NCBI GenBank assembly: GCA_016177025.1
Contig: JACOWB010000011.1
Location: 1-49,132, forward strand
DNA from: Candidatus Aenigmatarchaeota archaeon
Lineage (GTDB): Archaea > Aenigmatarchaeota > Aenigmatarchaeia > CG10238-14 > SCSR01
Direction: 5' to 3'
DNA length: 49,132 nucleotides
Position numbers and translations under genes: made by a program. How positions within the stretch are numbered: the first letter of the stretch is position 1; the number at the start of each line of letters is the position of its first letter. Under the pieces are notes generated by a model. The model saw only the letters and a list, made by a program, of their open reading frames with translations. It had not been told where the DNA came from and ran no database searches. Shown piece by piece: positions 2,561 to 26,696 of the stretch.

Positions 2561-2649
2561 GCCCCAGTAGCTCAGTCAGTAGAGCGTTTACATTATATGG
2601 CGCAAGCATGGTAAGCAAAAGGTCTCGAGTGCAATTCTCGACTGGGGCT
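2561..2649 (+). tRNA. tRNA-Thr(GGT) with 16-nt non-canonical intron at 29/30 (2590-2605)
   Basis: Acceptor GCCCCAG/CTGGGGC; removing the intron restores stem TTTGC/GCAAA around ATGGTAA; BHB helix GCGT/GCGC, inner CAT/ATG helix. Confidence 0.88.
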
Positions 2650-17662: not shown

Positions 17663-17778
17663 AACATGATATATGTGAGAGGATAGAAAAACTTGTTGAT
17701 ACCGTATATGCGACATTTGATAGTGTATTATTTCCCGAGTTCTAATGTAATACGTCTTACATATAGGCAAGAAAGCTC

Positions 17779-18003
17779 TCAAATCTCAGTTTGTCTTCTA
17801 AATGTTCTACGCACATGTCTTATAACTCTAGGGCCATATGCTACGCCAGACCCAAGCATAACAAGTCCCATTACTGTCCCACAAAATAAAGATTCGTCTT
17901 TCCCGGTCAGATACTGGTAAATACTCGCTATACCTTAACTACCTATGTAATTTCCGATAGCGCCAGCAACTAAACCACTTATTAAATTGCTTTCATAAGG
18001 CAT
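17779..18003 (-). pseudogene. Small two-TM glycine-rich membrane protein with an in-frame TAA
   Basis: MPYESNLISGLVAGAIGNYIGS*GIASIYQYLTGKDESLFCGTVMGLVMLGSGVAYGPRVIRHVRRTFRRQTEI; TAA at 17935-17937. Confidence 0.45.
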
Positions 18004-18147
18004 GCTAATACCAACTAACAAAATACATAATAAATAACTATTTACCTTTTTATTTAAACAATCAGTTGGAAAATGAAATAAACACCTGTCCCATATGGGT
18101 CATCATTAAACTTAAAAAGAAATACCACCAACTCTAATGAGTTAATT

Positions 18148-19518: not shown

Positions 19519-19635
19519 GGGCCCATAGCTCAGCATGGCAGAGCACCTGGCTTTTAACTATATGTTAAAAAGCATATTGATCCAAGATGATAGGAAGGAA
19601 CCAGTGGGTCGAGGGTTCAAATCCCTCTGGGCTCA
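19519..19635 (+). tRNA. tRNA-Lys(TTT) with 43-nt intron at 37/38 (19557-19599)
   Basis: Acceptor GGGCCCA/TGGGCTC; BHB helix CTTT/GAAG, outer helix CTAT/ATAG; T arm GAGGG-TTCAAAT-CCCTC. Confidence 0.9.
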
Positions 19636-22644: not shown

Positions 22645-22731
22645 GGGCCCATAGCTCAGCATGGTAGAGCAGCTCAAGTGTTGCTGAAGCTCTTAACGAG
22701 ACGGTCATGGGTTCGAATCCCATTGGGCTCA
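22645..22731 (+). tRNA. tRNA-Lys(CTT) with 13-nt non-canonical intron at 30/31 (22676-22688)
   Basis: Acceptor GGGCCCA/TGGGCTC; splicing restores GCTCG/CGAGA around CTCTTAA; perfect BHB helix CAGC/GCTG. Confidence 0.9.
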
Positions 22732-23682
22732 CTAAATTGGCTTTAAAATTATAGCATTATTATCCCGGTCGAAGTCACTCTTAGCTTGAGAAGAATCTAT
22801 AGTCAAAGTAATCAAATCAACATTCCTTTCCGTATAAATCGCATCTGGTATCATCCAACCTGCTCCCGAACTCATGGCTGGTAGTGTATGCATTTTAGTT
22901 TCATCATCAAGCTTTATTTCAATCGAGACATTCTCTGATGTGATGAGACCCCTGTTCCAGACCGTGAAGTTTATTATGATGTATTTGTCGTGCTGTTCTG
23001 CGTTGACATCGCCGAAGTACAAATCAGGCAAAGCTTCTATAGAATACAGATTTCTCAGGGTCTGTTTCATCTCGTCTGTGATTTTGGCGCTGCAATCTAC
23101 GGAAGGGAACATCACACTCTTTACATCAGTCGTATGCGCGAATCCCAAGACATGTCCGATTTCGTGAACGATTGTTATCTTGTTTTCACATTCGCTTGAT
23201 GTAGGCGTATACAGCATCTCAGCTGATCTTACAAGACTGAAGAGGCCGGTGTCGATTGCATCCAACTTGGCTTCACCGAGCGTGACTGTTATGGCTGATG
23301 TATTCCTTTCATTATATTCTCCTGCAGTCGCATAGCGGACGATAAAATGAGCTTTTTCCAATTCGGTCACTTCTGTGAATTTAACCAGTCCTGTAGCTTC
23401 CTTGTTCCAGATCTCTATCCCTTCTCGGATAAGTTGCAAGCTTGTGTTCTCGGTTATTCTTGAATAGAAAGTGAGCTCGCTCGAGTTCCAGCGGGCCTTT
23501 TCGTAAATCATTGCGTGCGGAATGGTCACTTGGACGTCATTAAGAATGTATTTATCGGGTTTGAAAGTTTTAGATATTTCTGCATCCTGCTCTGTAGATT
23601 CTGGGCTTTGCGGAGAAAATCGCGGTTCGGCGCATCCCGACAAAAACAAGACGGCTACCAAACAAAAAATCACCAGCTTCAT
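22732..23682 (-). CDS. Lipoprotein matrixin-type zinc metalloprotease with CARDB-like domain (paralog)
   Basis: Lipobox-like LFLSGC after ATG 23682; HEIGHVLGFAH, SVMFP; LPDLYF...VWNRG...DFDRDNN. Confidence 0.85.
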   Translation of the reverse strand: MKLVIFCLVAVLFLSGCAEPRFSPQSPESTEQDAEISKTFKPDKYILNDVQVTIPHAMIYEKARWNSSELTFYSRITENTSLQLIREGIEIWNKEATGLVKFTEVTELEKAHFIVRYATAGEYNERNTSAITVTLGEAKLDAIDTGLFSLVRSAEMLYTPTSSECENKITIVHEIGHVLGFAHTTDVKSVMFPSVDCSAKITDEMKQTLRNLYSIEALPDLYFGDVNAEQHDKYIIINFTVWNRGLITSENVSIEIKLDDETKMHTLPAMSSGAGWMIPDAIYTERNVDLITLTIDSSQAKSDFDRDNNAIILKPI

Positions 23683-23702: not shown

Positions 23703-23909
23703 TTAAAATACAAATCTTTCTTCTAGGATTCTTGCATCGCCGCCGGATTTCTTGATGAATGACGCTATATCCATTAAGCTTGTCAACTCGCCAAAACTCC
23801 ATACAGATCTTTGAATGTGTTTGGCGCCGATTTTAGTCAACATTCTTTGCGCCTGTTTCATGCTTGACTTTTCTCCTAATGGAATGTCGAAAATTAAAGC
23901 AAATCTCAT
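23703..23909 (-). CDS. Stand-alone Cas2/VapD/PaaX-like ferredoxin-fold protein
   Basis: MRFALIFDIP...RMLTKIGAKHIQRSVW matches the hhhhYDI...L...G..hQ.SV pattern; 68 aa from ATG 23909. Confidence 0.7.
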   Translation of the reverse strand: MRFALIFDIPLGEKSSMKQAQRMLTKIGAKHIQRSVWSFGELTSLMDIASFIKKSGGDARILEERFVF

Positions 23910-23928
23910 GTTTTCCCACCTGTTAACA

Positions 23929-23946
23929 ATGTCGCATATGCGACAT
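23929..23946. promoter_or_regulatory. Perfect 18-bp palindrome ATGTCGCATATGCGACAT (candidate operator)
   Basis: Exact reverse-complement symmetry, between the divergent starts at 23909 and 23984. Confidence 0.7.
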
Positions 23947-23983
23947 ACAAAGATTTTTGTATTCAAAAGGATAATAAAGAAAT

Positions 23984-24109
23984 ATGGCAGAAGACGTTAA
24001 AAAGAAAATCGAAGACATAGCATACGAAGTGGGATATTCAACAGGTAAGAAAAAGTACAAAGGATATAAAAAAGGATTCACGAGAAAATACACAGGATAT
24101 AAGAAATAA
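23984..24109 (+). CDS. 41-aa basic peptide with repeated G[YF]KK units
   Basis: MAEDVKKKIEDIAYEVGYSTGKKKYKGYKKGFTRKYTGYKK fills the gap exactly. Not in the ORF track. Confidence 0.6.
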   Translation: MAEDVKKKIEDIAYEVGYSTGKKKYKGYKKGFTRKYTGYKK

Positions 24110-26610: not shown

Positions 26611-26696
26611 GCAGGGGTCGCATAGTCTGGTCAATTGCACGAGGCCTAGGACCTCGCGGGTTAGTCCCTACGGGAGTTCAAATCTCTCCCCCTGCA
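26611..26696 (+). tRNA. tRNA-Leu(TAG), intronless
   Basis: Acceptor GCAGGGG/CCCCTGC; CGAGG-CCTAGGA-CCTCG; variable arm GGG-TTAGT-CCC. Confidence 0.93.

Follow-up and report, generated by a model that had tools for sequence, protein, structure and literature searches.

A stand-alone Cas2-fold protein family of Aenigmatarchaeota and the perfect palindromes in its promoters

A Cas2-like gene, a palindrome and a divergent peptide gene

In the stretch of DNA analyzed here (49,132 nucleotides, hereafter the window), which belongs to a 571-kb Aenigmatarchaeota (DPANN) assembly of 23 contigs and 86% completeness (labelled G000), a short gene of the minus strand, P0001, encodes a 68-amino acid (aa) protein (MRFALIFDIPLGEKSSMKQAQRMLTKIGAKHIQRSVWSFGELTSLMDIASFIKKSGGDARILEERFVF) and is preceded by a perfect 18-bp palindrome, ATGTCGCATATGCGACAT. 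On the other side of the palindrome and facing the other way lies P0002, an open reading frame (ORF) for a 41-aa peptide (MAEDVKKKIEDIAYEVGYSTGKKKYKGYKKGFTRKYTGYKK). An earlier note, made from the sequence alone, had described P0001 as a Cas2/VapD-like gene lacking any cas1 gene or CRISPR array nearby, and had proposed that gene, palindrome and peptide form a toxin-antitoxin or regulatory module. All three elements were found as described (coordinates in Table 1): in translation, LIFDIP occupies residues 5–10 of the protein and QRSVW residues 33–37, the palindrome is perfect and lies 19 nt 5' of the ATG, and the divergent ORF is present. We consider it probable, though well short of certain, that the family of P0001 consists of Cas2-fold proteins that act as dimers, each reading a palindromic operator of its own and thereby regulating its own gene.

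A complete family with the Cas2 fold

With the family alignment as input, AlphaFold2 (AF2) predicted a ferredoxin-like fold for P0001 with a predicted local distance difference test score (pLDDT) of 90.8 and, as assigned by DSSP, the topology β1(3–8) α1(14–26) β2(30–33) β3(36–39) α2(42–54) β4(58–63). A Foldseek search against the PDB gave type II-A Cas2 as the best match, followed by SSO8090, other Cas2 proteins and then VapD, with a TMq of about 0.7; VapD of Haemophilus influenzae (PDB 6zn8) stood at rank 27 with a TMq of 0.64. The Cas2/VapD-like fold is thus borne out. The acidic residue that ends β1 (Asp8) is nearly invariant in the family alignment; some members have Lys in its place (FKLP), with dyads still present at their genes.

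Similarity to Cas2 at the sequence level is weak and covers residues 1–43. P0001 stays below the curated cut-offs of both Cas2 models (PF09827, E=0.028, 15.0 bits against a cut-off of 23.8; TIGR01573, E=0.017, 15.4 bits against 24.5), and the Cas2 models of PADLOC, which have no curated cut-off, give E=3e-4 for P0001 and 3e-6 for one relative. A sequence search of the PDB returned nothing with P0001 alone and only Cas2, at E of about 0.1, with the family profile; PHROGs and BFVD returned nothing informative. When 36 homologs were scanned singly, PF20803 (PaaX_M, the central Cas2-like domain of PaaX) matched 23 of them at E<1 (best 7.4e-5) and the Cas2 models matched 12. PF20803 did not match P0001 itself at E<10, and its best score in the same genome is 12.8 bits (cut-off 24).

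An exhaustive profile search of 1.8 billion representatives yielded only 95 clusters, nearly all of proteins of 60–98 aa; the farthest matches were winged helix-turn-helix (wHTH)+Cas2-like proteins of the Candidate Phyla Radiation (CPR; P0127, P0130 and P0132) and one ChrB-like protein. Across the whole 571-kb assembly there is no Cas1, Cas2 or PaaX above cut-off and, there as in the window, no CRISPR-like repeat-spacer array, so that the absence noted earlier for the window extends to the genome and a CRISPR remnant is ruled out. A truncated PaaX is likewise ruled out by the uniform length and intactness of the family. Of the earlier suggestion of a PaaX-type C-terminal fragment, the likeness stands, the closest Pfam model being the central Cas2-like domain of PaaX; the fragment does not. 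Given the fold, the absence of CRISPR genes and the near-uniform length of the homologs, P0001 belongs to a Cas2-fold family whose members are complete and stand alone; it is not part of a CRISPR system, nor is it a fragment. We found no published account of archaeal stand-alone Cas2-like proteins with private palindromes in the literature searched, the coverage of which was incomplete.

The family is almost confined to one order of Aenigmatarchaeota, with 0–16 copies per genome. It is present in 57 of 301 genomes of the phylum, 55 of the 57 in that order, and is spread over 26 of 151 genera; genomes having the family carry 1–16 copies, some of them broken. The window genome has four full-length paralogs, on contigs C22 (the window copy), C20, C7 and C15, the other three being 49–63% identical to the window copy, and orthologs are syntenic within the genus. 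The neighbors of the paralogs (M10-like peptidase, MazG, scpB, pdhC) are not related to the PaaX pathway. Between scpA and scpB lies the C15 paralog (C15:33726–33926), which has a promoter and a palindrome to itself; in another genome (G042, locus L090), scpB is preceded by an orphan palindrome only.

Perfect palindromes in the promoters of the family

All four paralogs of the window genome carry an 18-bp palindrome 7–19 nt 5' of the ATG (ATGTCGCATATGCGACAT, ATGTCCGATGTCAGACAT, ATGTCACACGTGTGACAT and ATGTAACACGTGTTACAT). In shuffles of the window, the chance expectation for ATGTCGCATATGCGACAT is 0.01 matches with 3 mismatches allowed, and perfect 16-mers of the form TGT..ACA occur 6 times in the genome against approximately 0.14 expected. 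We surveyed the 100 nt upstream of 108 full-length members from approximately 45 genomes for perfect palindromes, with 14 bp as the minimum length, and found one, of 14–26 bp, in 78 of them. The palindrome is thus a dyad-symmetric site over the gene's own core promoter. Its place after the TATA box and before the start is conserved in the family, which strongly reinforces the earlier proposal that it is an (auto)regulatory site. The window palindrome also precedes the orthologs at loci L036 and L037. Within 250 nt downstream, a palindrome accompanies only 4 of 71 genes and is lacking in the other 67; bracketing by a second palindrome is limited to 2 of the 71, two divergent members (L027 and L029) flanked by their own palindrome.

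Alignment of 51 promoters on the dyad gave the consensus ATAGAAA(A/T)nTTTATA, resembling a TATA box with its transcription factor B recognition element (BRE), with 0–5 nt between its end and the palindrome's TGT. Dyad center and ATG are 10–28 nt apart, and the palindrome lies 0–22 nt before the ATG. The spacing between TATA box and transcription start that is usual in archaea is established, and its application to this geometry places the palindrome at roughly -23 to -5 (predicted), a location from which known archaeal repressors prevent the polymerase from being recruited. Judged by the same geometry, transcripts of members with short distances would have no leader; a GGTG-type ribosome-binding site is present in members with 23–28 nt from dyad to ATG, the window gene included, and the C15 paralog has GGGTGA at the position matching the Shine-Dalgarno-like element of P0001.

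The outer (A)TGT...ACA(T) is common to the palindromes, and the inner bases vary between paralogs, always symmetrically. Every one of the 78 perfect sites has a self-complementary center of 4 nt (ACGT, ATAT or AGCT), a symmetry that a two-fold protein on duplex DNA needs and a hairpin loop does not.

The palindrome also affects gene calling. Some homologs are started at an ATG inside it, which produces spurious MSHMRH or MSDIGH extensions (cases affected or listed: P0006, P0018, P0020, P0025, P0032 and P0035; P0116), and one 376-aa "fusion" to a pseudouridine-synthase-like protein is a read-through of the palindrome as ...SDVIRIT...

Co-variation between protein and palindrome

The half-sites co-vary with residues 11, 18, 21 and 34 of the Cas2-fold protein. 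At residue 11, the classes for the three centers do not overlap: Arg (48), Lys (7) and Ser (2) go with AC, Thr (8), Leu (4), Ile (1) and Asn (1) with AT, and Gln (3), Phe (2) and Glu (2) with AG. Residue 34 is His (27), Asp (15), Phe (11), Glu (2) or Gln (1) with an AC center (one further AC row is gapped), Arg (11), Lys (2) or Gly (1) with AT, and Gln (5) or Asn (2) with AG. Within the window's own clade, residue 34 switches together with the center, Arg going with ATAT, Gln with AGCT and Phe with ACGT. Where position 4 of the half-site is C, residue 18 is Lys or Arg without exception (25/25), being otherwise mostly Val or Leu, and where positions 4–5 are CG, Lys or Arg at residue 18 is joined by Gln at residue 21 (6/6). 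The CG cases include a distant protein (L129) whose half-site is the same as that of the window, TGTCGCAT.

The mapping is ordered, with residues 11 and 34 corresponding to the center, residue 17 to position 6, and residues 18 and 21 to positions 3–5. Among pairs of proteins at least 55% identical outside the co-varying columns and sharing a half-site, residues 18 and 21 never differ and residue 34 does so rarely; residues 13, 14, 20 and 23 differ freely. Read from the alignment, this pattern of conserved and free residues is the periodicity of one helix face. Specificity residues that co-vary with operator bases are what an autoregulated repressor is expected to show; the phylogeny-corrected test of the association is underpowered. 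In Escherichia coli, Cas2 touches the protospacer duplex through N10, R14 and R16, at the β1-α1 junction and the N-terminus of α1, and through R77/R78, with N10, directly after the acidic residue of β1, at the center of the duplex (PMC6395717).

Palindromes elsewhere in the genomes

In six of the seven family-bearing genomes that were scanned, we found 5 to 13 or more perfect ATGT-N10-ACAT palindromes each, with approximately 0.01 expected; G015, the seventh, lacks this form, its palindromes being of other types. In five related genomes without the family, three of them from the same genus, the number of ATGT-N10-ACAT matches does not exceed the control, and there is 1 perfect palindrome in total.

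A strict regulon of one palindrome type per paralog holds in G008 (8 contigs), where each perfect palindrome type matches a paralog of the same genome, and fails in G007, with at least 11 sites of 9 types versus 4–5 family genes, and in G042, where ATGTTATACGTATAACAT occurs 8 times. In the window genome, the exact 18-mer ATGTCGCATATGCGACAT is found again on contig C9 (2891–2908) in flanks unrelated to those in the window, followed after 2 nt by TGTAACACGTGTTACA, the 16-mer core of the C15 paralog's palindrome (the pair spans C9:2891–2926). The pair is intergenic and lies approximately 100 nt upstream of an ORF without assigned function and of pilin-like genes.

At five loci (L104, L103, L105, L107 and L099), 2–5 different perfect palindromes of 16–18 bp are arrayed 0–5 nt apart. 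The array at L104 (601–673; G007:C3:23904–23976) consists of four different perfect palindromes filling the 73-bp gap after an AAA_28 gene, opposite a convergent ORF. Elsewhere the arrays have two, three or five members. Some of the arrays exactly fill gaps between convergent genes, the gene ends concerned being those of AAA_28, ROK and SNase genes.

Hybrid sites, built from two known half-site types, are also found: ATGTCCGAT with GTCAGACAT on C20 (8235–8252) and ATGTCATAC with GTGCGACAT on C13 (2376–2393) of the window genome, ATGTTATAC with GTATTACAT in G008 (C5:21115), and one in G014 (C14:4151). The C20 hybrid is the C20 paralog's own upstream site; residue 34 of this paralog is Arg, in keeping with the AT half, whereas the G001 ortholog combines Phe at residue 34 with a perfect ACGT site.

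Several contigs of related assemblies start or end at palindromes or family genes (G042:C60:11–28, C61:1–18 and C36:145; G015:C9:114; G011:C3:23), as expected if these act as assembly-breaking repeats. On our reading, the orphan, arrayed and hybrid palindromes do not fit a simple regulon and recall repetitive extragenic palindromes (REPs) and the bacterial interspersed mosaic elements (BIMEs) that they form.

A proposed mechanism of autoregulation

We infer dimerization, direct binding and repression as follows. P0001 would form a Cas2-type homodimer whose two-fold axis lies on the dyad of the palindrome upstream of its own start codon. The residues that read each half-site, T1 G2 T3 n4 n5 n6 A7 n8 with n8 at the center, would lie on one face of α1 in its N-terminal half (residues 11, 15, 17, 18 and 21 and the invariant R22), joined by residue 34 in the β2-β3 turn. 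The palindrome directly follows the BRE/TATA-like element and would end a few bases before the predicted transcription start; because of this position, its occupation would block recruitment of transcription factor B and RNA polymerase. The P0001 gene would in this way repress itself, probably along with the M10-like peptidase gene that follows it. The divergent peptide gene may be influenced too, as the TATA region is common to both: the segment at 23947–23962 could serve as a TATA box in both directions, leftwards with the palindrome between it and the start of the Cas2-fold gene, rightwards with the palindrome on the BRE side and the peptide ATG approximately 22 nt past the element, which suggests a leaderless transcript. 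A separate operator sequence for each paralog would prevent cross-talk between paralogs, and further copies of an operator in the genome, single or arrayed, would be extra targets.

Several observations weigh against this interpretation. Approximately 28% of the members have no perfect palindrome, with a near-perfect one in most of these. Many orphan palindromes are found where a promoter would not be expected, at gene 3' ends or between convergent genes, and near-complete G007 has several palindrome types without a cognate paralog. The Cas2-like domain of PaaX is regarded as a dimerization module, DNA being read there by a winged helix that P0001 does not have. As to the co-variation, the tree built without the co-varying columns (56 columns) is poorly resolved, with 2 of 49 branches supported, and for this reason the independent contrasts, although concordant, do not reach formal significance (the best tree gives 4, 2, 6 and 8 pairs, supported branches only 1). 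Co-inheritance also explains part of the association, because the N-terminal codons are physically linked to the promoter.

To our knowledge, Cas2 is the most conserved and the least understood of the CRISPR proteins. Outside CRISPR, its fold serves as an RNase toxin in VapD and as a dimerization module in PaaX. The present family points to a possible third role, in which nothing more than the 68-aa fold reads short palindromes sequence-specifically, by a simple correspondence of residues to bases that exchanging two to four residues could put to a direct test. It would put a name to a regulator family that has undergone lineage expansion in DPANN archaea, in whose small genomes few transcription factors are recognizable, would account for a class of perfect palindromes and their arrays there, and would offer a minimal comparator for the abundant, uncharacterized wHTH+Cas2-like proteins of CPR.

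Alternative explanations

The orphan, arrayed and hybrid sites could instead belong to an element that propagates palindromes, in the manner of REPs with their REP-associated tyrosine transposases (RAYTs) or of integron attachment sites. The Cas2-fold dimer would then be a nuclease or strand-transferase with its Asp8 pair over the dyad, cutting and rejoining there would create perfect, hybrid and arrayed palindromes, and the promoter copy would be both element end and control site. Such an element would account for the excess of orphan perfect palindromes over paralogs in G007 and G042, for arrays that exactly fill convergent-gene gaps, for the hybrids, for the near invariance of Asp8, for the patchy distribution and pseudogenes of the family, for the frequent contig breaks at the sites, and for L027 and L029, bracketed by their own palindrome. 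We nevertheless hold it to be unlikely, since copy numbers are tiny (1–8 per type versus hundreds for REPs), orthologs are syntenic within the genus, 67 of 71 genes lack a downstream palindrome, members with Lys for Asp8 still have dyads, and no transposase or recombinase is associated; binding by homodimers or heterodimers, with selection, also explains both perfect symmetry and hybrids. The specific step in which the Asp8 pair, corresponding to the metal site of Cas2, nicks or exchanges strands at the dyad center and so makes the perfect, hybrid and arrayed palindromes seems to us quite unlikely. If true, it would make these proteins more than repressors and would amount to a minimal sequence-specific DNA-handling system made from the Cas2 fold alone, which may relate to the wHTH+Cas2-like cassettes of CPR and bear on the role of Cas2 before CRISPR adaptation.

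A second possibility is that another factor binds the palindromes and that the Cas2-fold protein is a Cas2/VapD-like RNase or a small adaptor within the regulon of that factor. Its Cas2 and VapD homologs are nucleases, P0001 has no classical DNA-binding motif, and, as the outer ATGT..ACAT is common to many palindrome types, one factor could recognize them all. Left unexplained by a single factor are the inner bases, which vary and yet are perfectly symmetric, the residue-specific co-variation with the Cas2-fold protein, and the lack of palindromes in sister genomes that lack only the family; we therefore judge this explanation decidedly unlikely.

Control might also act on RNA, with a transcribed 5' hairpin bound or cleaved by a Cas2/VapD-like RNase that would limit its own mRNA. 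Members of the Cas2 and VapD families can be RNases, and the palindrome could fold into a stem of 7–8 bp. The predicted transcription start, however, lies at or beyond the 3' end of the palindrome because the TATA element abuts it, the self-complementary central four bases would be unneeded in a hairpin loop, and Rfam finds nothing at the palindrome, its only matches in the window being tRNAs. Taken together, these points make RNA-level control highly improbable.

There remains the toxin-antitoxin pair proposed in the earlier note, in which the Cas2/VapD-like protein and the basic peptide would be autoregulated through the palindrome. The peptide has an acidic N-terminal helix, a KGYKKGF tail and no family match; a search of 5.8 billion proteins gave 14 homologs. 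Each of the 11 genomes of the genus has one copy of its gene, three without the family gene (G003, G006 and G010) among them, and in G009 the identical palindrome stands 60 nt upstream of the peptide gene in the absence of a Cas2-like gene. The divergent layout around one palindrome recurs outside the window in four other genomes (G001, G008, one NCBI assembly and G007, the last with a truncated family gene), and the fold does resemble that of the VapD toxin. The peptide, however, adjoins only 5 of approximately 108 family genes, which all belong to a single ortholog group of one genus. It is missing beside the window genome's three other paralogs, and an 85%-identical ortholog of P0001 has a different neighbor. 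When the three elements are followed into other genomes, as the note had suggested, the palindrome proves to be the conserved partner and the peptide does not. The genes are moreover divergent and form no operon, and PADLOC, Pfam and NCBIfam give no toxin-antitoxin matches. Its own distribution and the other neighbors of P0001 orthologs show P0002 to be a small conserved gene with a promoter that in some genomes includes the shared TATA region and the palindrome, not an obligate or toxin-antitoxin partner; a toxin-antitoxin pair, rejected on distribution, is scarcely credible.

Neighboring genes and other features of the window

The coordinates of the features are collected in Table 1. The M10-like metallopeptidase gene begins 20 nt past the P0001 stop codon and, because this gap is so short, is probably co-transcribed with P0001.

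Farther away, the site at 17683–17716 is followed by no family gene and lies just upstream of the promoter of an aldo-keto reductase gene on the opposite strand. Its palindrome is of the CGCAT type and decayed, with a right half identical to that of the site at 23929, and the whole may be the relic of a lost paralog. The site points into a 370-bp stretch without a convincing gene (17780–18147). The near-palindrome upstream of rpl37e is of the CCCAT type, perfect copies of which occur in G007 (ATGTCCCATATGGGACAT).

Four tRNA genes of 86–117 nt lie in the window (2561–2649, 19519–19635, 22645–22732 and 26611–26696), of which ARAGORN calls only two; we read all four as carrying archaeal-type introns.

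Table 1. Features of the window discussed in the text
Feature	Position	Strand	Remarks
Family-type promoter motif and degenerate palindrome, orphan site	17683..17716	+	Motif ATAGAAAAACTTGTTG (ATAGAAAAACTTG), then palindrome with halves ATACCGTAT and ATGCGACAT at 17699-17716
Near-perfect palindrome, orphan	17745..17762		Halves ATGTAATAC and GTCTTACAT, 8/9 pairs; type of C15:4556 ATGTAAGACGTCTTACAT
Near-palindrome, orphan	18087..18102		Halves TGTCCCAT and ATGGGTCA, 7/8 pairs; 45 nt upstream of rpl37e
M10-like metallopeptidase gene, lipoprotein type	22732..23682	-	Lipobox LFLSGC, motif HEIGHVLGFAH; ORF list, sequence
Cas2-fold gene P0001, 68 aa	23703..23909	-	Translation, AF2, Foldseek
Shine-Dalgarno-like GGTGGG	23915..23920	-	5 nt 5' of ATG; read from sequence
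Perfect 18-bp palindrome, putative operator	23929..23946		Halves ATGTCGCAT and ATGCGACAT; between TATA box and predicted transcription start
Quasi-symmetric BRE/TATA-like segment ACAAAGATTTTTGTAT	23947..23962		Common to both divergent genes; putative promoter use
Peptide gene P0002, 41 aa	23984..24109	+	Lys/Tyr-rich

Comparison with known systems

With REP/RAYT systems and BIMEs, the family has in common short extragenic palindromes, dispersed or clustered, each type linked to a cognate gene that has the same palindrome adjoining it. It differs in that the protein has a Cas2 fold and is not an HUH/Tyr transposase flanked by REPs, in its low copy number, and in that its palindromes are perfect, loopless and situated in the promoter of the gene.

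VapD/VapX of H. influenzae (PDB 6zn8) is a small stand-alone protein of the same fold. A type II toxin-antitoxin system keeps toxin and adjacent antitoxin as a unit across homologs, whereas the present family has no conserved adjacent antitoxin, and the sole small peptide beside it is independent of the family.

Cas2 of CRISPR systems (PF09827/TIGR01573) shares the β1-α1-β2-β3-α2-β4 fold and the Asp ending β1, and the residues of the family that co-vary with DNA lie where E. coli Cas2 contacts the duplex (N10, R14 and R16; PMC6395717). In contrast to a Cas2 of this kind, P0001 scores below the curated cut-offs and its genome has neither cas1 nor an array. Cas2 is a scaffold that binds the DNA backbone without sequence preference; the family described here appears to be sequence-specific and autoregulatory.

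An analogy for a fold of this type as a reader of DNA is found in the DNA-binding domains of papillomavirus E2 and EBNA1, β-α-β-β-α-β dimers in which α1, following β1, is the recognition helix for a palindromic site. There is no detectable homology with these domains, and the dimer may differ, with a β-barrel in E2 and Cas2-type packing here.

The PaaX family (PF07848 + PF20803 + PF08223) and the short wHTH+Cas2-like mini-PaaX proteins of CPR resemble the present family in the FDIP...Q.SVW signature of their Cas2-like domain, and PF20803 is the Pfam model that most members match (23/36). In PaaX regulators there is likewise an association of palindromic sites with the gene's own promoter. Unlike these proteins, the present family has neither the winged helix (PF07848) nor the C-terminal PF08223, the Cas2 fold making up the whole 68-aa protein; its neighbors lie outside the phenylacetyl-CoA pathway, its palindrome is short (16–18 bp) and usually only upstream, not bracketing the gene, and it is the Cas2 fold itself that, judging by the co-variation, would read the DNA. 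The family is probably an autoregulated dimeric DNA-binding regulator of a new kind, part neither of a CRISPR system nor of a toxin-antitoxin pair.

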